Positions 26,737-39,775 of a DNA stretch of 64,000 bases are shown in pieces. Made by a program: the position numbers and the translations under genes. The notes under the pieces were generated by a model. It was not told the origin of the DNA, did not search any database, and saw nothing but the letters and a program-made list of their open reading frames with translations. Numbering within the stretch: position 1 is the first letter of the stretch; every line of letters starts with the position of its first letter. This DNA comes from Candidatus Marinacidobacterales bacterium. Lineage in GTDB: Bacteria; Acidobacteriota; Vicinamibacteria; Marinacidobacterales; DATDRI01. The DNA lies in NCBI GenBank assembly GCA_965226495.1, contig OZ245365.1, positions 4,768,001 through 4,832,000 of the forward strand, given 5' to 3'.

Positions 26737-26766
26737 TTGACAGCGACTCTGTGCCGACTCTACACT
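26737..26766 (+). promoter_or_regulatory. Putative sigma70 promoter of ku-lig
   Basis: TTGACA-N18-TACACT. Confidence 0.5.
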
Positions 26767-26879
26767 GGCACCTGGCTAAGCCGATGGAGGCAACCAGACA
26801 TTTTGGTGCCCTTCACATTTTGGGCGGCGTTGCGGCCTTCTCGGCTTTATCGATAGAGGATCACGAAAGGGAGTTGATC

Positions 26880-27704
26880 GTGAGGCCTACGTGGAAAGGT
26901 TTTCTCAAGCTATCGTTGGTCAATATACCGGTGCGAATGTATCCGGCCGCCCGCTCACAGTCACTTCACTTCAATCAGATTCACAAGACCTGCAGTACAC
27001 GAATCAAATACGACAAGAAATGCCCCACGTGTAATTGCAGTGTGAGCAACGATGACATCGTCAAGGGCTATGAGCTCGCGAAGGACCAATACGTAATCCT
27101 CGACGCCGAGGACTTCGACAAGGTCCAGCTGGAGTCCACCAAGTCCATCTCCATCGTCCAGTTCGTGAGCGACGGCGACATCGACCCTGTGTACTACCAC
27201 GGATCCCATTTTTTGGTTCCGGACGGACCGGTTGCGATCGAGAGTTACGCAACGATCCGTATGGTAATGGAGGAAAAGCGACGCGTGGCACTCGCCAAAG
27301 TCGTCCTCAGCGGAAAGGAACAGGTCATGGCCATCCGCCCGAAAGATGATGGCCTTGTCATGTCCGGCCTTTACTACGGAGACGAAGTGCGGAGCATGAG
27401 CGCCCTCGAGGAGCTCCAGAACCAACCGGATGCCACCCCACAAGAGGTCGAGCTCGCCGGCCAGCTCATCGACAGCATCACCAAGCCGTTCCACCCCGAG
27501 TCGTTCGAAGACGAGTACCGCAAGCAGTTGCTCGACATCATCACTGCGAAGGCGGATGGCAAGGAGATCGTGGAGCCACCCCAAGTCGAAACAGGAAAGG
27601 TCATCAATCTCATGGACGCTCTCAAGAACAGCCTCGAGCGGGCACGAACCCCTGCCGCAGAAAGCGACAACGAGGAGCTCCCGGCCACCGGCACGACTCC
27701 ATGA
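26880..27704 (+). CDS. ku: Ku protein (NHEJ)
   Basis: GTG start after GGGAG; RPTWKGFLKLSLVNIPV, IVKGYE, VINLMDALK. Confidence 0.93.
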   Translation: MRPTWKGFLKLSLVNIPVRMYPAARSQSLHFNQIHKTCSTRIKYDKKCPTCNCSVSNDDIVKGYELAKDQYVILDAEDFDKVQLESTKSISIVQFVSDGDIDPVYYHGSHFLVPDGPVAIESYATIRMVMEEKRRVALAKVVLSGKEQVMAIRPKDDGLVMSGLYYGDEVRSMSALEELQNQPDATPQEVELAGQLIDSITKPFHPESFEDEYRKQLLDIITAKADGKEIVEPPQVETGKVINLMDALKNSLERARTPAAESDNEELPATGTTP

Positions 27705-27735
27705 AGTAGAACACTGAGGTGGGTCGGCTCCTCGA

Positions 27736-28689
27736 ATGACAGACTGGCTTGACAAGAAGATCACCCCCATGCTGGCCTCCTCGGGCCAGCCCTTCGACTC
27801 CAGTAAGCATCTCTACGAGATCAAGTGGGATGGGATTAGGGTCCTCGCCTTTTTCGGGAAAGACCGGATACGACTCCAAACGCGCCGCCATCTAGATACG
27901 ACACACCGATATCCAGAGATCGTCCGCGCCCTCAGCGAGCTCCCCGGAGAAGGGATCTTGGACGGCGAGGTCGTCGTCTTCGACGGAGACAAACCGAGTT
28001 TCGAACGGGCGCTCGAGCGCGAGCTGGTGTCCAATCCGGCCCGGATCGCGCAGCGTTCTCGCGACATCCCTGCGTACTACGTCGCCTTCGACCTTCTCTA
28101 CCTGGACGGACGCGTGCCCATGGAAGAGCCTCTATCCGAACGGAAGCGGCTTCTGTCGGGGCTCCTCACGGCAAGCCCTCCCCAACCCATTGTCGAGTCC
28201 GCCTACATTCTGGAGCGCGGATCCGCGTACTACCAGGAAGCCGCCGAACGGGGGCTCGAGGGCATCGTGGCCAAGACCCTCGACGGCCGTTACCTTCCAG
28301 GCAAACGCACGCGAGACTGGATCAAAATCAAAACCCGTCGCACAATCGATTGCGTCGTCTTGGGAACCGTCCGCGAGAAAGGCACGGGACGAGTGAAGTC
28401 CTTAGTGCTTGGTGCCTACCGAAACGGTGAGCTCACCTGGATCGGCAATGTTGGAAGCGGCTTGGATGGAAAGACACTGCAAGCGCTCAAGCAGGAGCTG
28501 GGTCCGCTCGAAAGTGGCCCGCCGGAAGGGCTCAAGGTCGTCGCGCCGGGCCACGTCCGCTGGCTCATGCCTGCCCTCGTTGCCCGCGTCGAGTACGCCG
28601 AGACGACCCGGGAAGGAAGGCTGAGGGCGCCGGTCTTCTTGGGGTTCGTGGACTCCCCACTCGAGAAATGCCTGGCCCCCAGCCAATGA
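27736..28689 (+). CDS. ATP-dependent DNA ligase (LigD/LigC-type ligase domain only)
   Basis: PML, EIKWDGIR, LDGE, FDLL, EGIVAK, WIKIK, LRAPVF. Confidence 0.9.
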   Translation: MTDWLDKKITPMLASSGQPFDSSKHLYEIKWDGIRVLAFFGKDRIRLQTRRHLDTTHRYPEIVRALSELPGEGILDGEVVVFDGDKPSFERALERELVSNPARIAQRSRDIPAYYVAFDLLYLDGRVPMEEPLSERKRLLSGLLTASPPQPIVESAYILERGSAYYQEAAERGLEGIVAKTLDGRYLPGKRTRDWIKIKTRRTIDCVVLGTVREKGTGRVKSLVLGAYRNGELTWIGNVGSGLDGKTLQALKQELGPLESGPPEGLKVVAPGHVRWLMPALVARVEYAETTREGRLRAPVFLGFVDSPLEKCLAPSQ

Positions 28690-31671: not shown

Positions 31672-32244
31672 ATGGATGTTGTTCGCTCTCGCACGGGGTG
31701 GATCGAGGTCATCACCGGGAGCATGTTCAGTGGTAAGAGCGAGGAGCTGATCCGCCGCATACGTCGCGCCCAGATCGCTCGGCAACGGGTCCAGGTCTTC
31801 AAACCGAGCATCGATGGCCGCTACAGTCTGGAGCATATCGTCTCCCACAACGACCAGCGACTCGAGGCGGAGCTAGTCCCCAACGCGGATGAAATCGAGA
31901 AACGCCTCGAGCACCGAACCGAGGTCGTTGGCATCGACGAGGCCCAGTTCTTCGATCCCGAACTGGCCAATGTGTGTAACCAATTGGCTAACATGGGCAA
32001 GCGAGTCATCGTCGCTGGCCTCGACCAAGACTACCTAGGCAAGCCCTTCGAACCGATCCCACAGTTACTCGCCATTGCGGAATACATCACCAAGACCTTG
32101 GCCATCTGCATGCGTTGCGGAAACCCTGCGAATCACACCCAGCGACTCGTCACGTCTCACGAGAGAGTCGTGGTCGGCGGCTCGGAGGCCTACGAAGCGC
32201 GCTGTAGACGGTGCTTCGAGCCCGGCCCGGCGAGCGACAACTGA
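31672..32244 (+). CDS. tdk: Thymidine kinase
   Basis: [28 protein letters not shown]. Confidence 0.95.
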
Positions 32245-33308
32245 ACCTTTCGCAGCCCTTCCACCCATAGGTTGGCGCCGAGCACTGCAAGGGTAAGCGC
32301 CCCACCCGGCACGGCGAGCGTCCACCAGTATCGCGTCATCGAAGTGTAGTTCGAGGCCGCGGATGCCAACATGTTTCCCCAACTCGCATTCGGCTCTTGC
32401 ACTCCAAGGCCTAAGAACGAAAGCGTCGCCTCACCCAAAAGGAAATACGGTAGCGTGAGCCCCACCTGCAACAGCAACAGAGGAAGCGTATTCGGAAGGA
32501 TGTGCCGGAAGAAGAGTCGACTCCGGCCGGCCCCAGCGGCGACCGCGGACGTGGCAAATTCGCGCTCTCGCAGCGACAAAACGTGCCCTCGCACAAGTCG
32601 TGAAACACCGCACCAGCCCACGAGCGCCAACGACCCAACCAGAATCAAGGCTGCCCAACCCGGGGCCAGGTCGTCAGGAAAGACGTTTCGGACCGCGAGA
32701 ATCAGATAAAGCGCCGGGAGAGCCATGAAGAGCTCCGTCGACCGCATCAACCATCGATCCCAGACTCCTCCGCCAATAGCCGCCGCGGCTCCCACCAGAG
32801 CGCCCAAGGTCACAGTGAGCAGAACGCCTAAGATCGCGGCGGTCGCACTAACCCTGGCACCATGGAGCACCCTCGACAGTAGGTCTCTTCCCAGAGCGTC
32901 GGTACCCAGGAGATGGGCTCGGCAACCCTGAAATCCGAACAAATGAGTGGACCCATTCTCGTCCGCCACCAGCCAGCGAACCGAGCAGCCTGCGCTCGGA
33001 AGCGAAGGCGGATGGTGGAAGCTCTCCCGATCCTGGGATCGCGGGCTGTAGGGTGCCAAGAAGGAAGCCCCGAGTCCGGCGACCGCGATGACCGAAAGCA
33101 GGGCGATCCCGATGCGGGAACCTCTATCAATGCCGCGGGGCCCCACCCCCACGGCTTGTCCCTTCGCCGGCAAGCGGCTGCAGAACGGCTGAGGGCTCTT
33201 ATTATCAATGCCGCGGGGCCCCACCCCCACGGCTTGTCCCTTCGCCGGCAAGCGGCTGCAGGACGGCTGAGGGCTCTTATTAGCCCACCAACTTGGTTTC
33301 CACAACAT
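32190..33308 (-). CDS. Peptide ABC transporter permease DppC/OppC with in-frame repeat insertion
   Basis: [29 protein letters not shown]; the N-terminus carries two 26-aa repeat units. Confidence 0.85.
33125..33282. repeat. Two tandem 78-bp modules inserted in frame in dppC
   Basis: Units 33125-33202 and 33203-33280 differ at one base; TA at each junction. Confidence 0.9.
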
Positions 33309-33520
33309 TAGTGACTCACTGCGCGCTCACTCCACGTTCGCGCGCTTGCCGCCTCGCTCCTCGCTCGGCGGTCTGTTGTCGGCCCACTCGGGCCGGGCTC
33401 GCTCCCTTATCAATGCGGCGGGGTCCCCACCCCCACCGCCGTCCCTTCGCCGGCAAGCGGCTCCGGGACAGCTGATGGCTCCTCGCGCAAGGTGCAGTGC
33501 GCTCCTTGAGCACCCTGCTA
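33309..33520 (+). mobile_element. MITE-like element between dppB and dppC, TA-flanked
   Basis: Matches 16759-16975 (reverse complement); TA at both ends. Confidence 0.8.
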
Positions 33521-34489
33521 GCCTTCTTCCATTCTGATTCGTGGGTCGGCGGCGCCGGTCAACAGGTCCGCGATCAGATTGCCGAAGAGGATCAAGACCG
33601 ATGCAAGAACCAACACACCGAGCAGCAAGAACGAATCCCGGGCGAGCAATCCGCCGAATGCGAGCCTCCCCATACCCGGCCATCCGACAATCACCTCGAT
33701 GAGAAATGCGCCGTTCAAGAACCGCGCTAGAGAAGCACCCGCGAATGCGATGAGTGGGACCATTGCCGGCCGAAGACCGTAGCGCACGAGTATCTGGCTT
33801 TCGGTAAGACCACGGGAACGCGCCGCCCTCACGAACTCCGAGGGTAGGACTTCGAGTAAAGCGCCTCTAGCCTGCAGAAAGAAAAGAGGGGACATCGAAA
33901 AACTAAGGAGGAGCGCCGGCAACAGCAGATGCCGAGCATGATCCAACACCCGGCTCGACCATGGGAGCTCGAGAGAGCCGGCCATGGAGCCACCACCGGT
34001 TGGAAGCAAACCGGTGGCGGCGGCAATTCCCAAACCACCCACCGCGAGTACCAAAGTGGGAACCGAGACGGCCCCGAGTGCTAGGCCAGCGAGGATTCGA
34101 TCTAGCGATCGTCCCGGACGAACCATCGCGAGAAGGCCGAGCCCCAAACCGACGAGGGACGAAACGACCAAGGCCGTCAGCACGAGCGCAAGCGTATAGA
34201 GGGCGGCCTCGCCCAGGAGCTCCGCTACTGGACGTTGAAACCGCAGAGAGACGCCCAGGTCGCCGCGGACCGCTCCCGTCAGCCACGACAGGTATTGTTC
34301 ATACCAAGGTTTGTCGAGACCGAAGCGGCTCACTAACGCGTCGACCGTCGAGGGAGGGATCCCTGGATCCAGACGCAAGCGATCGACAAACGCGCCGGGC
34401 GCCAGGTGGAGGAGCAGAAACGAGAAGAAGCTCACCCCGAAGAGCAAGGGAATGGCAGCCAGCAATCTCGTGAGCGCCATACGAGCCAC
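33518..34489 (-). CDS. Peptide ABC transporter permease DppB/OppB
   Basis: GLDKPWYEQY, GDLGVS, ARSRGL, WPGMG, ADPRIR. Confidence 0.9.
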   Translation of the reverse strand: MARMALTRLLAAIPLLFGVSFFSFLLLHLAPGAFVDRLRLDPGIPPSTVDALVSRFGLDKPWYEQYLSWLTGAVRGDLGVSLRFQRPVAELLGEAALYTLALVLTALVVSSLVGLGLGLLAMVRPGRSLDRILAGLALGAVSVPTLVLAVGGLGIAAATGLLPTGGGSMAGSLELPWSSRVLDHARHLLLPALLLSFSMSPLFFLQARGALLEVLPSEFVRAARSRGLTESQILVRYGLRPAMVPLIAFAGASLARFLNGAFLIEVIVGWPGMGRLAFGGLLARDSFLLLGVLVLASVLILFGNLIADLLTGAADPRIRMEEG

Positions 34490-34569: not shown

Positions 34570-37080
34570 TTATCCCACGCGGCGATCGGTCTTGTCCTCG
34601 GCTCCGAAGAGGCTGGGCTGATGTGCGGTGCGATCGGACTCCTCCGGTCTCCGGCGACGCATCTTTCGACGACTCTTTTGATCGTACATGTTTCTATCCG
34701 CCGCCATGAGCAGCGACTCGAGATCGTCGCCGTCGGCGGAGAAAGCCGCGAGCCCGAGGGATATGCCAACGCTCAACATCTTTCCGATCCCGACGTCGAT
34801 GTCGGATGTCTCCACGACCTCCTGCAGCCGACGGGAGAACTGAACGGCCTGTTCCATCGTGGTTTTTGGCAAGACAGCAATGAACTCGTCCCCGGCATAG
34901 CGGACCAACACGTCACTGTCTCGCATCTCGGCCTTCAGGATGCGTCCCACTTCTTTGAGGAACCGATCCCCGGCATGATGACCGAAACGGTCGTTGACGC
35001 TCTTGAAGTCGTCCAGGTCCAGCTCGATGACGGTGAGCGGCTCGTCGTAGCGTTTGGCTTCCGAAAGGGTCTGCTCGAAGAAAATGTAGAGGAAGCGCGA
35101 GTTCGCCAGACCGGTCAAGCGATCGGTGAAGGCGTCCTCCTGGGTCTCCTCGAAGCGAATGGCGTTGTAGAGCGCGATCGATGAACGGTTGGCGATGATC
35201 TCCATCAACCGCACATGGTCATGCGAATACCGCTCGTTCCCCGACCAATAGAGCGCGATCGTTCCGAGCGGTCGTTCCTCGTGAACCAACGGAGCCAAGA
35301 TGGAGTTGTGGTAGTTCTTTCGGAACTGCTCAGGAAGAAGCATCACGTCCGGACCTGGGTGCACGTTGTAGAGCATACGGTTGTTGGCGGCCACCCAACC
35401 CGCCAATCGGGTCCCGAACTCGATGGACACCTCCTTGAAGGCGTCTGGGTTTTGCCCGGTGATGTGAGCAGGTGTTAGTACTCCCTGGCCATCGTCCACC
35501 AGATAGATGACGAGCGTGCTAAACGGAATGATCTTCTCGATCTTGGATGCAATGATGGTGAGCGTGTCGGGACGGGACAAGGAGTTGCCAATGGTCTGCA
35601 AGATTTCGAATAGAGCAAATACCTCCCGCTGCGGCTCGGAGATAGAGTCGCTAAAAGCGGGTGCCTGAGGCACGCCCACGATGTCCGGCATCCGTTTCCT
35701 GTCTCGATACTCCTTCGGCGCCGCCATCTCCCGCACCGCCAATGTTCCTAGCTGCTCGTCGAGCTCATCTACGATCTCCAGGAATTTGTTGAAGACCCGG
35801 GGATCGAACCGATGTGCTTCCCGTTTCATGGTCGAGATTGCCGTTTCCCGATCCAGGGAGCGGCGGTAGACTCGGCGGGCGGTGAGCGCCTCGTAACAAT
35901 CGGCAACCGACATGATCCGGGAGCCAAACGGGATCTCTTCGCCTTTGAGCCCGTCCGGGTAACCGCTCCCGTCCCAATTCTCGTGATGATGTTTCACATA
36001 GGGAATGACCGGTACCGGAAAGTCGATAGTGGAGAGGATCTGAGCACCCACCGCTGGGTGCGTACTCATCTTCTGGAACTCCCTTTCCGTCAAACGCGTG
36101 GGTTTGTGAAGGATGTACGACGGGATCGAGATCTTGCCCACATCGTGTAACACGGAGGCGAACCAAAGTCCCTCATAAGTCTTATCGTCGACACCCAACG
36201 CGCGCGCCAATGCCAGTGTCAGCAAACGGGTGCGCTGAATATGTGTACTGGTGTGATGCTTGTAGTCAGTATGGAGCTCTAGCGCGTCGATCGAGAGCGC
36301 GAAGGCCTCCGCGGTCTGATAGTAGAGCTGGGTCAGGTCCTCGTACTTCTCGTTGTAGAAATGATGGGCGTAGTAAACCACCAGAAGGATAGGGAGACCG
36401 AGCAGGAAAGCCCAGGGCCCGGCTACTTGATGGAAAAAGAAGATGACGGCTGCCCCGGAAGCGGAAGCGAGAAAGTAAAGGGGAACCAAAGGTAGATTCT
36501 GTCGCCACATGGCCCAGAAGCCACCTCGACCGGTTACCGCCATCATGGCGTGCATCGATGCCGAATTGATGAGGAAGTAGGTTCCAGCCAACAAGACGAC
36601 CGGAGGAATTATTTGATAGGCGCTTGTCAATTCCGGAGGCACGAAGGCGTAATACACATGACCATAGACGAAGGCGAAGATGCCACCTGATGCAGTATTG
36701 AAGATGGCTTGACTGCTCTTCCAGCCTAGGCTCTTGGATCGATGTACCAGCTGCTTCTTCTTGGTCGTGAACCAGTAACCGACCAAGTGAAAGAGGCCGT
36801 TCGCGACGACCCCCGGCGCCACTCCGTAGATCAGGGTGACGGAGAGAATCAAACAGTCGGCGACGGCCATCCAGGTGTTGGTGCGGGGGATTCGAACGAC
36901 CCATTTGGAGCTGAGCGAAGCGACGGCGGTCAGGGCGGCGAGGGATATCCAGTCCTGCCAAGTGTAAACTTGCCGGAGTTGGATGAGATTATGGACGGCC
37001 CAGACGAAAATAGGGACCGCCGCGGCGACGGATGCCGCAATATAAAGTTTGACTCTGGCTGGCCGATTTTGCCAGTCCAA
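34570..37080 (-). CDS. Multi-TM sensor with HD-GYP, GAF and GGDEF (AGDEF) c-di-GMP domains
   Basis: About 7 N-terminal TM segments; LHDVGK, HHENWDGSGYPDGL; GAF; TDRLTGL, DLDDFKSVND, RYAGDEF. Confidence 0.92.
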   Translation of the reverse strand: MDWQNRPARVKLYIAASVAAAVPIFVWAVHNLIQLRQVYTWQDWISLAALTAVASLSSKWVVRIPRTNTWMAVADCLILSVTLIYGVAPGVVANGLFHLVGYWFTTKKKQLVHRSKSLGWKSSQAIFNTASGGIFAFVYGHVYYAFVPPELTSAYQIIPPVVLLAGTYFLINSASMHAMMAVTGRGGFWAMWRQNLPLVPLYFLASASGAAVIFFFHQVAGPWAFLLGLPILLVVYYAHHFYNEKYEDLTQLYYQTAEAFALSIDALELHTDYKHHTSTHIQRTRLLTLALARALGVDDKTYEGLWFASVLHDVGKISIPSYILHKPTRLTEREFQKMSTHPAVGAQILSTIDFPVPVIPYVKHHHENWDGSGYPDGLKGEEIPFGSRIMSVADCYEALTARRVYRRSLDRETAISTMKREAHRFDPRVFNKFLEIVDELDEQLGTLAVREMAAPKEYRDRKRMPDIVGVPQAPAFSDSISEPQREVFALFEILQTIGNSLSRPDTLTIIASKIEKIIPFSTLVIYLVDDGQGVLTPAHITGQNPDAFKEVSIEFGTRLAGWVAANNRMLYNVHPGPDVMLLPEQFRKNYHNSILAPLVHEERPLGTIALYWSGNERYSHDHVRLMEIIANRSSIALYNAIRFEETQEDAFTDRLTGLANSRFLYIFFEQTLSEAKRYDEPLTVIELDLDDFKSVNDRFGHHAGDRFLKEVGRILKAEMRDSDVLVRYAGDEFIAVLPKTTMEQAVQFSRRLQEVVETSDIDVGIGKMLSVGISLGLAAFSADGDDLESLLMAADRNMYDQKSRRKMRRRRPEESDRTAHQPSLFGAEDKTDRRVG

Positions 37081-37220
37081 CTGTGGCTCCCGGTTAGCAG
37101 AAAGAAAAGTCGAGTTAAGAGAGACTTCTATTTAAAAGTCCGATTCGATGACTGCTTTTCTTTTCCCCGTTACCGGGTTCATATTAATGAATGAGAACGG
37201 CGACAGAATGGAGAGAGGCG

Positions 37221-37250
37221 ATAGTAGCACAGCGGTACTGTGCCGGTCAA
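37221..37250 (-). promoter_or_regulatory. Promoter of the HD-GYP/GGDEF gene with a palindrome in the spacer
   Basis: TTGACC-N18-TACTAT with extended TGn; GCACAG-N5-CTGTGC. Confidence 0.55.
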
Positions 37251-37273
37251 GATACTTGGGCGGGAAGCAAGCT

Positions 37274-37297
37274 GGAGGCCGCCGGGGGGCGGCCTCC
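37274..37297 (-). terminator. Strong hairpin downstream of the micro-ORF cluster
   Basis: GGAGGCCGCC-N4-GGCGGCCTCC; no clear U-tract. Confidence 0.45.
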
Positions 37298-37344
37298 CTC
37301 GCAAAGTCAATCAATTCAGGACGATCGGGTAACCAGCTTTTCTT

Positions 37345-37371
37345 CTAGACCCAAAGGATTCCGCGATTCAT
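37345..37371 (-). CDS. Octapeptide MNRGILWV (putative signal peptide)
   Basis: ATG AAT CGC GGA ATC CTT TGG GTC TAG; same GILWV* as 37582-37608; weak SD (ACGGTG). Confidence 0.6.
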   Translation of the reverse strand: MNRGILWV

Positions 37372-37416
37372 GACATACACCGTTTCGGTTAATTGGTTAA
37401 CTTTCGGAGCCGACTA

Positions 37417-37512
37417 TTAGTTCCAAATCATCCCAGCAGCAGGAGCGGTCCGCTCTTCGAGCTCTTCCACGGTTAGTTCAACGATTTCGATGTTGTCGTT
37501 TTGAGTTTCCAT
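37417..37512 (-). CDS. 31-aa precursor-like peptide METQNDNIEIVELTVEELEERTAPAAGMIWN
   Basis: SD-like AAAGGGA, tandem stops TAA TAG, acidic leader with short hydrophobic core. Confidence 0.75.
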   Translation of the reverse strand: METQNDNIEIVELTVEELEERTAPAAGMIWN

Positions 37513-37581
37513 TGTTAGTCCCTTTCTTTCAATTAGTTGCGCCAGATTTAACTGAAAATCAAGAAATAAGCAATTTGAAAA

Positions 37582-37608
37582 CTAAACCCACAAAATTCCC
37601 TTGGTCAT
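37582..37608 (-). CDS. Octapeptide MTKGILWV (putative signal peptide)
   Basis: SD GGAGGTG, then ATG ACC AAG GGA ATT TTG TGG GTT TAG. Confidence 0.65.
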   Translation of the reverse strand: MTKGILWV

Positions 37609-38035
37609 CGGTCACCTCCGTGAGATGCCCGACCTGGAAGGACACGCCGACCGGGCCGGGGATTGGGAAGGAAGCCCCCCTTGGAGGGATCTTCGCTCCC
37701 GGACTGAAAGGTTGAGTTGTTAAGAGGAGTGGTTCGGGTAAGCCAGCGGAAGGGGACTTGTTGGAACTGTCATGAATTCAAATAAAGGTCTTTGAATAAC
37801 TCAAGAACCCTTGGTGCAGCCCCTTTAGACCCACCGAAATTACCTACAAACCCTGCCTCTCGACCTCACCTCCTTGGACACTTAACCCACCGAACTTACA
37901 ACTCGAAACGTCTGCTATTTCTTGGACTTTTACTCTACGGTGGGAAAATACTCCGAGCACACCCGACAGTCAGTGACCGGGATCACCAAAGAGAAAATAT
38001 GGGATTTTCCCCCCGTTTTTCGGTTGTACCCTAAA

Positions 38036-39775
38036 TCACCTTATTAAGTAAAGTGCTTCGCTGTTCCAGAGGGTAGGGTGCCAGAAGGGCGTCGGCTCGA
38101 GGTTCCCGAGCCGGACGGTGGTACCCACCAAGGCGTGCGGCACGACCAGATCGATGACGGGGAGCTCTTCGACCACCAAGGCCTGCAGCTCGTCGATCAA
38201 TCCTTTGCGAGCTTCGTATTCGACCGCCATCATCTGCTGCTCCATCAGCTCGTCCAATCGCGCTTCCCATACAGAGGCGGGTTGCGACTGAGAGGGATGC
38301 CATACGTGCAAGGGCGAATGGCTGAGCCAAAGAGGCCTCTGCGTGGACGGATCGGGATCGGTAAAGCTAATCCCGAAGAGGCATGCCTGGTAGTCGAATG
38401 TACGCGTGATTCGGCTTATTAGGGTGGCGAAATCGAGCGAAACGAGGCTCATTTCGACCCCGATCCGCGCGAGGTCTTCTTGGATGAGCGTGGCCGTCTT
38501 CACGCGGGAGGGGTTGTTGGCGTTGGTGAGGAGCGTGAACCGCACGCGTTCTCCCCTTGGACCCACAAGCACTTCTCTCTCCTCGGTGAAGCCGGCCTGC
38601 GCCAGCAGTTCTCGAGCACGCTGCGGATCGTAGGGCGGAGGAGCGATAGACTCGTTCCACCACCGTCGGTTTGCCGAGGTGATGGGGCCGGCCGCCGGAG
38701 AAGCCAAACCCGCGTAGACGGCCTTCACGATGGATTGCCGGTCGATGGCCAGGGAAATGGCCCTTCGGAAGCGTCGATCGGTGAACCACGCTCGTTGCTC
38801 GGGCGACACCGAGCTCTCCGGGTTGAGATTGAACCAGATGCGCTCGGGAGTCGTCCCAGGGCCCAGATCGATGAGGCGCCGATCCGGAGCATCCTTCTCC
38901 CTGAAGCTGATGAAGTCCTCCGGCGGCAAGGGACTCAGAAGGTCGAGCTCCCCAGAGCCGAAGCGAAGCGCCAGAGCGTTCGCATCGGATAGGATTTCGA
39001 AAGTGATTCCGTCCAAATAAGGAAGCTGCTCTCCGTCCGGTCCGTACTTCCAGTAGTTGGGGTTGCGGCGGAGAACCACTCTCTGGCCAGGCACATACCG
39101 CTCGAGGACGAACGGGCCTAGACCTACGATCCCCTCAGAAACCCCGATTCCGTATTCGGATGCGAAGCTCCCATCCTCGAGCGAGGCTTGGAGCCTATGT
39201 CGAGGCAGGACCGGAATGCTATCGAAGATCCTCTCCACCACCGCGGTACGACGGGGTAGTCGGAACCGAACTGTTAACGGATCGACGACCTCTGGAACCA
39301 GAGGCTTCCCTTCGACCATCGCCGTTTCGACGAGCGGACTCGCCACTGCAGGATCATGCAAAGCCTGAAATGTGAACGCGACATCTGCAGCGGTCAGAGG
39401 CGTGCCATCTGAAAAACGGACATCGGGCCGGAGCTTGAAAGTCAGCTCCCGACTGTCCTCAGAGAAGGACCACGATTCGGCGAGCTCGGGCTCGAGCTCC
39501 TGCGTCAGCCGATTGACCCTTAGCAGAGCGGCGTGCAGACGCTCGGTAATTTGGTGGCTCACTTCATCGGTCGCAAGAAGTCGGTTCCAAGTCTGCGGCT
39601 CGCTGCGAATCCCCACTCGCAGCATGCCGCCGGCGACCGGGGTGCCGGGGATGGACGAATCCCCTTGGACCGCCTCCTCCTCCGTCAAACGGCACTGAGG
39701 GGCGATGAAGAGCGCCATGGTGGCGAGCGCAAGGGGCAAGGTAGATGCGCGTGACATCCACGTCATTGGGCCCAA
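38036..39775 (-). CDS. Peptide ABC transporter substrate-binding protein (family 5)
   Basis: Signal/lipobox-like APQC; PELAESW, VRFSDGTPLTAADV, GLGPF, NPNYW, FRRAISLAIDR. Confidence 0.92.
   Translation of the reverse strand: MGPMTWMSRASTLPLALATMALFIAPQCRLTEEEAVQGDSSIPGTPVAGGMLRVGIRSEPQTWNRLLATDEVSHQITERLHAALLRVNRLTQELEPELAESWSFSEDSRELTFKLRPDVRFSDGTPLTAADVAFTFQALHDPAVASPLVETAMVEGKPLVPEVVDPLTVRFRLPRRTAVVERIFDSIPVLPRHRLQASLEDGSFASEYGIGVSEGIVGLGPFVLERYVPGQRVVLRRNPNYWKYGPDGEQLPYLDGITFEILSDANALALRFGSGELDLLSPLPPEDFISFREKDAPDRRLIDLGPGTTPERIWFNLNPESSVSPEQRAWFTDRRFRRAISLAIDRQSIVKAVYAGLASPAAGPITSANRRWWNESIAPPPYDPQRARELLAQAGFTEEREVLVGPRGERVRFTLLTNANNPSRVKTATLIQEDLARIGVEMSLVSLDFATLISRITRTFDYQACLFGISFTDPDPSTQRPLWLSHSPLHVWHPSQSQPASVWEARLDELMEQQMMAVEYEARKGLIDELQALVVEELPVIDLVVPHALVGTTVRLGNLEPTPFWHPTLWNSEALYLIR

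Follow-up and report, generated by a model that had tools for sequence, protein, structure and literature searches.

The window, a 64,000-nucleotide stretch of the genome of a Candidatus Marinacidobacterales bacterium (genome G000; assembly GCA_965226495.1, contig OZ245365.1, positions 4,768,001 to 4,832,000), carries a small peptide-coding cassette on its - strand, between the gene for an OppA-like solute-binding lipoprotein (SBP) and that for a membrane HD-GYP–GAF–GGDEF enzyme. The cassette includes two open reading frames (ORFs) of eight codons, here termed mini-ORFs. Mini-ORF 1 (ATGACCAAGGGAATTTTGTGGGTTTAG, 37608-37582, - strand) encodes MTKGILWV and mini-ORF 2 (ATGAATCGCGGAATCCTTTGGGTCTAG, 37371-37345, - strand) encodes MNRGILWV; each is closed by a stop codon. 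Read 5' to 3', the order is a palindrome, a 5' leader, mini-ORF 1, an A+T-rich gap, one or more ORFs resembling a peptide precursor (a single one of 31 residues in the window), mini-ORF 2, a hairpin and a promoter-like site for the HD-GYP gene. A mini-ORF on the 3' side of the precursor occurs in the window's own family (f1) only.

The first-pass annotation of this DNA had described the two mini-ORFs, and their coordinates, their strand and the Shine–Dalgarno (SD) sequence of mini-ORF 1 are exactly as it claimed when read from the sequence. The ribosome-binding site of mini-ORF 2 is weak (GGTG). It had also stated that the four nucleotide differences within the GILWV codons are silent, and the codons bear this out (ATT/ATC, TTG/CTT, which accounts for two of the four, and GTT/GTC). 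Overlooked in that first reading was the 31-residue leader-bearing precursor ORF that the mini-ORFs flank, and this changes the picture.

The whole genome (6,337,479 bp, 59.1% G+C) was scanned in six-frame translation. The scan found three instances of GILWV directly before a stop, of which two are at the cassette, and this genome-wide rarity makes the pair more than a matter of chance. The looser pattern G[ILMV][ILMV]W.-stop has 11 matches, and three lie inside a 255-bp stretch of the cassette; the third of these is the end, GMIWN, of the 31-residue ORF between the mini-ORFs. A scan of 37200-37760 for direct repeats of at least 10 nt, using a 7-nt seed, found none. The claim that the flanking DNA is not repeated therefore stands, and the likeness of the mini-ORFs does not stem from duplication of DNA.

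A search of 41 related genomes found orthologues of the HD-GYP protein in family f1, with 85-89% identity, and in a second family, f2, with about 65%. In a third family of small genomes, f3, none of 16 carries an orthologue. The order divergent CcsA gene, SBP gene, spacer of about 850 nt, HD-GYP, OppB, OppC and thymidine kinase genes is kept in f1 and f2; OppBC are absent from the loci of four relatives, and some genes are split or truncated. A mini-ORF consisting of ATG, one to three codons, G-[IV]-[LV]-W-[VIA] and a stop is present in 15 of the 16 spacers between the SBP and HD-GYP genes. In the sixteenth (G034, L032) the mini-ORF is there with its stop codon lost, and the HD-GYP gene has an in-frame TAG. 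The spacer peptides are MQGILWV, MRGILWV, MRGVLWV, MNGILWV, MNGILWA, MSGILWV, MKGIVWI, MRGIVWI, MNRGIVWI, MKRGILWV and MNNGVLWV, to which an unpublished genome, G007, contributes MCRGILWV and MNPGILWV. (G007 is also counted in the tallies of HD-GYP orthologues, GILWV patterns, precursor distribution and M50–HlyD co-occurrence and nowhere else.) The length of eight codons is not fixed: relatives have 7 to 9 codons, possibly 11. The mini-ORF lies 45-100 nt 5' of the precursor ATG and, in the window, about 265 nt 5' of the HD-GYP gene.

We compared 33 mini-ORFs, 19 from cassettes and 14 from free-standing copies that are described below. Second codon positions show one change in 165, whereas the third positions of the Gly, Ile/Val, Leu/Val and Val/Ile codons each hold three or four different bases. 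TAA, TAG and TGA are all in use as stop codons. Gly and Trp do not vary among the 33 copies, and the final residue is V, I or A. The ratio of nonsynonymous to synonymous differences, pN/pS, is 0.11, with pS = 0.65; the kin are not independent, and these figures are therefore a description and not a test. A GGAG, GAGG or AGGA site lies 4-18 nt upstream of 17 of the 19 cassette mini-ORFs and of all 14 free-standing ones. The substitution pattern strongly supports the view that these are coding sequences rather than sites in DNA or RNA, which agrees with the original proposal that selection acts on a peptide and not on a DNA site.

Independent support comes from a scan of metagenome contigs that used the precursor leader EELEER.APG alone and was blind to the mini-ORF. 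It returned at least 119 loci, of which at least 14 carry a precursor of the Vicinamibacteria type. Among the matches listed, all 14 of these have an SD sequence and M-x(1-2)-GILWV-stop, 97-150 nt 5' of the leader motif. Orthologous loci, which had been put forward as the place to look, thus retain the ORFs in the genomes and in the metagenomes alike. No source annotates them, as expected from the earlier remark that gene callers miss such ORFs. A relaxed pattern run on five f1 genomes returned only the known cassette copies and five matches outside the cassette. These five were set aside: three end longer frames that have no SD sequence, and two end in TGG and not in a stop.

The precursor-like ORF belongs to a large family. 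Orthologues are found in nearly every SBP/HD-GYP spacer examined, and a profile of 13 of them scored at least 401 proteins at E <= 0.01 among 8000 candidates; all are unnamed or 'hypothetical' and lack Pfam domains, and the precursors match no Pfam or NCBIfam model. We read 120 of these relatives. They are mostly 29-30 residues long and share the build M[DE]N..., E[IV]VEL[TE][VI]EELEER[TS]AP, an invariant Gly and then four or five highly variable hydrophobic residues. The tail is GIIIGL in 27 of the 120, which show 68 other tails besides, and GILWV in none. The final residue may be L, F, W, V, I, M, G, T, N or S, among others. Some tails, GLVWT, GMIWT and GIVWGG, resemble the end of the mini-ORFs. 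Two of the 120 (P0001 and P0002) are fusions of leader–core–leader–core type, with two units in one 65-residue metagenome ORF. Counted by whole genome, the precursor is present in 20 of 251 members of the class (f1 4/7 plus G000; f2 14/19; f3 0/28; others 1/196). The ORF in the window is the sole one in G000 with the leader motif. Elsewhere the precursor is amplified: G004 (L033) has three copies and an orphan on another contig, where the neighbours, a MacB-like permease and a DUF885 protein, are uninformative; G005 (L036) has two copies.

Features of the cassette and its neighbours, listed along the - strand (positions are those of the window)
Feature	Position	Strand	Basis or remarks
OppA-like solute-binding lipoprotein (SBP_bac_5)	38036..39775	-	Pfam, NCBIfam; lipobox-like N-termini in orthologues
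Palindrome GTGATCCCGGTCAC (GTGA-N6-TCAC), just 3' of the SBP gene	37973..37986	.	in every intact-spacer locus except the truncated L022
Conserved 5' leader of the cassette, about 330 nt	37620..37950	-	alignments; RNA-library contig 37604-37950
Invariant AAGGAGGTG block, precedes no ORF	37867-37875	-	GGAGGT in 13/13 aligned leaders
Shine–Dalgarno sequence GGAGGTG of mini-ORF 1	37613..37619	-	read from sequence
Mini-ORF 1, MTKGILWV then stop	37582..37608	-	orthologous mini-ORFs in 15/16 related loci; inside RNA-library contig 37495-37796
Precursor-like ORF, 31 residues, METQNDNIEIVELTVEELEERTAPAAGMIWN then stop	37417..37512	-	family alignments; at least 401 database relatives; no Pfam/NCBIfam family
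Mini-ORF 2, MNRGILWV then stop	37345..37371	-	inside RNA-library contig 37244-37440
G+C-rich hairpin GGAGGCCGCC-CCCC-GGCGGCCTCC closing the cassette, terminator-like, weak T run	37274..37297	-	read from sequence
Promoter-like site TTGACC-18-TACTAT for the HD-GYP gene	37221..37250	-	3' of the cassette hairpin
Polytopic membrane domain with HD-GYP, GAF and GGDEF, 836 residues	34570..37080	-	Pfam, NCBIfam
OppB-like permease	33518..34489	-	Pfam, NCBIfam, synteny
OppC-like permease	32190..33308	-	Pfam, NCBIfam, synteny

Metatranscriptome data give a hint that the cassette is transcribed. Contigs identical to 37244-37440, 37495-37796 and 37604-37950 come from two runs of a single study; together they cover almost exactly the cassette unit, and the same runs include contigs of the precursors of other strains. 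One contig spans both mini-ORF 1 and the precursor, which are likely to share a transcript. Neither run yielded a contig from the SBP or HD-GYP gene on either side; missing contig cover says nothing about expression.

The 5' part of the cassette has several conserved elements. The palindrome, kept in f1 and f2 alike, which we take to resemble a site for the CRP/FNR family, is not enriched genome-wide (29 occurrences seen and 21 expected). If the -10 element is TATTTT at 37950-37945, the centre of the palindrome falls about 41 nt upstream of the start. The AAGGAGGTG block of the 5' leader lies about 260 nt 5' of mini-ORF 1 and no conserved start codon follows it. At the other end, an equivalent of the closing hairpin (GGAGACC..GGTCTCC) and of the promoter-like site (TTGAY-N17-TGTGATA) is kept in f2; a consensus terminator scan did not list the 37274..37297 hairpin. 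Rfam covariance models run over 36900-38150 at E <= 5 gave asX1 (23 bits, against a gathering threshold of 70) and mir-4429 as the best hits. RNAalifold on the 5' leader returned a single helix of six pairs with a consensus energy near zero, weak evidence for a lack of conserved structure in view of the gappy alignments. No conserved hairpin pairs the mini-ORF with the SD sequence of the precursor, and the single-sequence folds differ among 12 loci, which is likewise weak evidence.

The nearest solved structure to the SBP is AppA of B. subtilis, an oligopeptide-binding protein (E 4e-34). The HD-GYP protein has its hydrophobic segments within residues 1-240, where a faint match to MASE9 (E 8e-4) is below the cut-off. 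No Opp ATPase gene lies beside the cassette. Further away in the window, genes for a Ku protein and an ATP-dependent DNA ligase stand side by side at 26751-28689 on the + strand, a bacterial end-joining pair.

The mini-ORFs are confined to this lineage. Within the order, the strict GILWV-stop pattern has 32 sites in 19 of 55 genomes (f1 3/7 plus G000; f2 15/19; f3 0/28), while the reversed pattern, used as a control, has 15 sites confined to 4 of the 55. Across 185,579 species, one genome each, GGAGG...ATG...GILWV-stop occurs at 33 loci. Sixteen of these are in-frame mini-ORFs and all lie in records of Acidobacteriota, Vicinamibacteria or Candidatus Marinacidobacterales; in-frame look-alikes elsewhere number only three (an archaeon, a Verrucomicrobiales metagenome-assembled genome and Ideonella), a number compatible with chance.

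The third GILWV-stop of G000 lies outside the cassette, at C1:1918867-1918893 on the - strand, and reads GGAGGT-N5-TTG GGT CAA AAG GGT ATT CTC TGG GTC TAG. This free-standing copy is about 195 nt 5' of a VIT-VWA gene and adjoins transposase genes; the surrounding region (L039, C1:1911000-1927000) contains genes for transposases of the DDE, Y2 and rve types. In most f2 genomes a corresponding ORF, M[KNTM]T[NS]GILWV and a stop, lies between the genes for a PA-domain M28 peptidase and an aconitase-family protein, about 110 nt 5' of the latter. The aconitase orthologue of G000 has no mini-ORF. When aligned, the free-standing units have a conserved upstream box, a promoter-like site TTGAC-N17-TGGCAnnAT, an untranslated region of about 45 nt and the ORF, then two hairpins, the first small and the second a strong G+C one with a T run, and, before the aconitase start, a TATAAT box. 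The predicted transcript is compact, about 150 nt with two conserved hairpins. The upstream box is common to the G000 copy and the f2 units, though the G000 copy precedes a different gene; it has no informative second site in G000. The differing gene contexts (VIT-VWA and transposases, as against M28 peptidase and aconitase) suggest that the unit has moved.

An attenuator role was considered for the free-standing unit and ruled out. The terminator hairpin stays intact in all 13 f2 units when the stop codon and the following 13 nt (16 nt in all) are held unpaired to mimic a ribosome. With a promoter and a terminator of their own, the latter surviving the footprint mask, the free-standing copies are thus stand-alone micro-genes and not attenuators.

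The leader of the precursor is more widespread than the cassette. Many metagenome peptides with a leader ending in ...EL.VEELEE(R/V)IAPG carry quite different cores, among the matches listed (L131-L248), and in that set the cores are Gly/Asn-rich, His-rich or short polar tails, and some precursors are multi-module, with repeats of a leader, a core of 3-7 residues and NHNETLV. The superfamily members P0142, P0144, P0145, P0152, P0155 and P0166 match no Pfam or NCBIfam model. In five of the seven contigs with longer flanks, a precursor with such a related leader adjoins a protein of 690-820 residues. Pfam recognizes Peptidase_M50 and HlyD in four of these neighbours, and PqqD as well in two; the fifth has HlyD only, yet aligns over its full length with the M50–HlyD homologue of G000. 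The N-terminal half of the fusions matches the NCBIfam daptide intramembrane metalloprotease at E 1e-60 to 3e-71, below the cut-off, and also the YydH/LiaK epipeptide maturation protease. Other neighbours of this leader class are a prolyl oligopeptidase, a 7TM histidine kinase, a GAF histidine kinase, a Ser/Thr kinase with TPR repeats and a GAF–GAF–HlyD protein. In the metagenome contigs L203, L157 and L241, two precursors of the class lie about 900 nt apart, beside genes for a PAPS-reductase-like protein that has an HTH domain and for a sulfate-activating enzyme of CysN/CysC type; this may point to a modification with sulfur or sulfate within the subfamily.

G000 encodes one full-length M50–HlyD homologue (C1:563063-565591, - strand), with 32-33% identity over about 800 residues. 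The protein has 843 residues and combines a zinc-ribbon/RRE-like domain, an M50 protease and an HlyD adaptor; it matches NF041824 (daptide_HExxH) with E 1e-60 and NF058609 with E 3e-13. A class-V aminotransferase-like gene (PF00266) follows the M50–HlyD gene in nine of 12 loci of f1 and f2. In G000 the two form a unit within C1:561000-567000 (L249:5026-9592), where the class-V aminotransferase-like partner has 609 residues, including an unassigned N-terminus of 250 residues. In daptides, the leader carries the motif E(-8) L(-7) D(-6) P(-5) M(-4) E(-3) P(-1) and is taken off by a site-2 protease fused to an RRE (bioRxiv 10.1101/2023.03.08.531785). Counted for a cut after Pro, the precursor leader reads E(-8) L(-7) E(-6) E(-5) R(-4) T(-3) A(-2) P(-1). 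By analogy, such a cut would make the invariant Gly the first residue of the product.

Taken together, the locus is best read as a peptide cassette of a kind not yet described, which belongs to Vicinamibacteria-like Acidobacteriota and is linked to Opp-like uptake and to the turnover of cyclic di-GMP (c-di-GMP). The mini-ORFs are very probably real peptide-coding micro-genes under purifying selection. They would form a lineage-specific family in which M and one to four varying residues, polar or basic, precede G-[IV]-[LV]-W-[VIA] and a stop, and the short hydrophobic peptide that each gives would be free and act in trans. The same pentapeptide occurs in three unrelated RNA contexts, one of them self-contained, and a trans-acting peptide is therefore the simplest reading; we lean slightly towards it. 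The first-pass annotation had proposed leaderless peptide signals, which is plausible.

At the cassette the mini-ORFs would be co-transcribed with the leader-bearing precursor, and this co-transcription, with the likeness to precursor tails, places the mini-ORF peptide in the same functional set as the precursor. The last five to seven residues of the precursor, which share the pattern of Gly and two hydrophobic residues and are hypervariable between strains, would form the core. We propose that the precursor may be cut after the Pro of ...EELEER(T/S)AP|G by the RRE–M50–HlyD fusion, encoded 4.2 Mb away, and that the same fusion might export the product. The leader, the hypervariable tail, the exporter-protease of the leader class and the sensor neighbours all point to exported short signalling peptides. 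The adjacent OppA-like lipoprotein could bind the released penta- to heptapeptides for import through OppBC, and/or the polytopic membrane domain of the HD-GYP–GAF–GGDEF enzyme could sense them, with a change in c-di-GMP. The mini-ORF peptide would then be the invariant leaderless member of the set and serve the pathway as a shared ligand or as a regulator inside the cell.

Our confidence differs between parts of this account. As a whole (lineage-specific micro-genes, a trans-acting peptide, processing of the precursor and receivers of Opp and HD-GYP type) it is our preferred explanation, to which we give a little short of even chances. A complete signalling circuit with c-di-GMP as its output is more doubtful. 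Least assured is the specific proposal of cell–cell signalling by peptides, of a kind not known from diderm bacteria, in which strain-specific hydrophobic peptides cut from the acidic-leader precursor would reach the Opp-like lipoprotein and the HD-GYP/GGDEF enzyme to alter c-di-GMP while the invariant x-GILWV serves as a second, lineage-wide signal or an intracellular set-point; we regard this as somewhat unlikely.

Several points weigh against the account. Translation, the cleavage site, export, the receptor and the output are steps that we infer. We know of no export route for a leaderless peptide of seven to nine residues. RNA-library contigs may contain DNA and show neither ends, strand nor level. 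The M50–HlyD gene is not adjacent to the cassette but 4.2 Mb from it; its score against NF041824 is 205.6 bits, compared with a family cut-off of 300, and its link to this precursor is drawn by analogy from other leader subfamilies. Homologues of the fusion, some fragmentary, also occur in f1 and f2 genomes that have no precursor, and co-occurrence therefore does not discriminate within these families. The cassette is decaying in G002 (precursor without ATG, split SBP gene and a 2.7-kb spacer; L021), in G003 (frameshifted precursor and truncated SBP gene; L022), in G016 (L034) and in G034, and is therefore dispensable; G018 (L038), like G016, shows deletions or rearrangements. Some gene splits in the assemblies of relatives may be assembly errors or sequencing frameshifts, so that calling these genes pseudogenes is unsafe. 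Finally, G012, G016, G018 and G022 keep the free-standing mini-gene, while a precursor was looked for in them and did not turn up and their HD-GYP orthologue is absent or broken. The target of the peptide cannot, therefore, be this cassette alone.

The main rival is a regulatory switch based on the nascent peptide. The mini-ORFs would be cis-acting leader peptides in which nascent x-GILWV slows or stalls ribosomes as they reach the stop codon, with a small molecule or an imported mature peptide as a possible trigger, and thereby controls the translation or transcription of the precursor, the HD-GYP or the aconitase gene. Leader peptides of 6-9 codons are known for the cat/cmlA, erm and msrD genes, and the mini-ORFs have the matching features of 7-9 codons, a strong SD sequence and a conserved C-terminal string directly before the stop. 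They also always lie 5' of something, be it the precursor, the HD-GYP gene or an aconitase-family gene. This explanation is weakened by the stand-alone copies and by the lack of alternative RNA structures, and we consider it unlikely. The strong intrinsic terminator of the free-standing units is indifferent to the masking described above, and a TATAAT box separates it from the aconitase gene. In G000 the same unit precedes the VIT-VWA gene while the aconitase orthologue does without one. At the cassette, the 12 loci share no hairpin that would join the mini-ORF to the SD sequence of the precursor, and the 5' leader offers one helix of six pairs. The use of all three stop codons further counts against a mechanism specific to one release factor.

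A second rival, to which we assign a still smaller likelihood, holds that the mini-ORFs are minimal leaderless precursors of RiPPs (peptides made by ribosomes and modified after translation) in the manner of mccA or bytA, with x-GILWV modified by a distant enzyme, for example at Trp or at one end. The invariance of Gly and Trp would suit a substrate of this kind, comparably small genes for the substrates of tailoring enzymes exist in the biarylitides, as far as the sources cited below go, and the class-V aminotransferase-like gene behind the M50–HlyD gene might be a candidate enzyme. No tailoring enzyme, however, is common to the cassette, the M28 peptidase/aconitase and the VIT-VWA sites, no gene of MccB or P450 type lies beside any copy examined, and the peptides have neither a C-terminal Asn nor the aromatic pattern of biarylitides.

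It is improbable that the element acts at the level of RNA, wholly or in part, with the short transcripts serving as small RNAs and the ORF being incidental or secondary. The compact free-standing unit with its two hairpins would fit, as would the long conserved 5' leader of the cassette, in which the invariant GGAGGT block starts no ORF. What is conserved between cassette and free-standing copies, however, is the peptide and not the RNA, the flanks being unrelated and the wobble positions free, and there is no Rfam match. That the mini-ORFs arose by chance or are what is left of the C-termini of duplicated, now dead precursor genes, as their likeness to the tails GLVWT, GMIWT and GIVWGG might suggest, is very improbable given that an ATG and SD sequence of their own are kept across two families with an HD-GYP protein only about 65% identical, that pN/pS is low, that the mini-ORF recurs at all 14 independent metagenome loci among the matches listed, and that a promoter and a terminator of their own accompany the free-standing copies.

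The locus is of interest for several reasons. Genes of 7-9 codons are invisible to annotation, and here the comparative evidence of selection at the level of the peptide is unusually clean. The host lineage, from soil, is abundant but little studied, and its mini-genes can have their own promoters and terminators. The locus joins an unannotated precursor family with hypervariable tails, a signature of pherotype-like diversification, to a membrane c-di-GMP enzyme, and the leader class is common to many short-peptide precursors that lie beside RRE–M50–HlyD exporters and sensor kinases. If the peptides are signals, peptide quorum sensing would be wired to c-di-GMP in Acidobacteria, and the x-GILWV genes would be among the shortest functional genes known, working without any processing. 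If instead the mini-ORFs are sensors acting as nascent chains, they would represent a new arrest motif.

Among the closest known parallels are the RRNPP systems. In SHP/Rgg, ComS/XIP and PapR/PlcR, small unannotated ORFs encode peptides in which the hydrophobic C-terminal 5-8 residues are active, the tails vary between strains and Opp is involved. Such short hydrophobic pheromones of Firmicutes are the subject of reviews (PMC13361665, PMC12445099, to the extent of their available text). The precursor shares a hydrophobic, strain-variable tail, and OppA/B/C-like genes lie beside the cassette in both families. In contrast, the cassette belongs to a diderm Acidobacterium, its precursor begins with an acidic, helical leader and not with a basic, signal-like N-terminus, and the neighbour is a membrane HD-GYP–GAF–GGDEF enzyme rather than a TPR/Rgg receptor; no TPR/HTH regulator of RRNPP type is found in the 21.7-37.1 kb and 38.0-42.1 kb parts of the window. 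The leaderless genes of 7-9 codons have no counterpart in these systems.

The leader metalloproteases of daptides (MpaP/DapP) and of epipeptides (YydH/LiaK) provide a second comparison. The 843-residue protein of G000 matches the models of both, NF041824 below its cut-off, and, for a cut after Pro, the E(-8) L(-7) E(-6) ... P(-1) of the present leader parallels the E(-8) L(-7) D(-6) ... P(-1) given for the daptide leader in the available source text. The protease differs from those of daptides in its fusion to an HlyD adaptor and in the distance between its gene and the precursor, and the precursor tails lack the invariant C-terminal Thr of daptide precursors. Beside the cassette and at the M50–HlyD locus, the stretches examined, we find none of the partners named in that text: DUF-RRE (MpaB), an oxidative decarboxylase, a class III aminotransferase or a methyltransferase.

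Very small genes are known from mccA, the seven codons of which encode the microcin C heptapeptide ending in Asn, with MccB adjacent. Biarylitide bytA genes encode pentapeptides that are the substrates of tailoring enzymes, according to the accessible parts of two sources (bioRxiv 10.1101/2020.07.21.214643, PMC12002111). The mini-ORFs resemble both, within what those parts cover, in having fewer than ten codons and a ribosome-binding site of their own and in being missed by gene callers. Unlike mccA, they end in V, I or A and not in Asn, and no ThiF-like/MccB gene is among the neighbours examined; unlike bytA, which adjoins a P450 gene, they lack the aromatic (Tyr/His) pattern used for cross-linking, and no P450 gene is among those neighbours. 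Leader peptides such as those of cat/cmlA, erm, msrD and TnaC are similar in length, in the strong SD sequence and in the conserved C-terminal residues before the stop, but no alternative RNA structure or regulated terminator was found here and one class of mini-ORFs is a stand-alone unit.

Searches of article text, with supplements outside their scope, returned no paper for 'GILWV' and none for the terms of the RRE–M50–HlyD architecture in combination; a literature search for Vicinamibacteria with RiPP or HD-GYP returned nothing relevant. The combination of a leaderless mini-gene with hypervariable leader-bearing paralogues, in Acidobacteria and beside a c-di-GMP enzyme, appears to be new, while its parts resemble known kinds, namely short hydrophobic pheromones, RRE-dependent leader peptidases and genes of fewer than ten codons.

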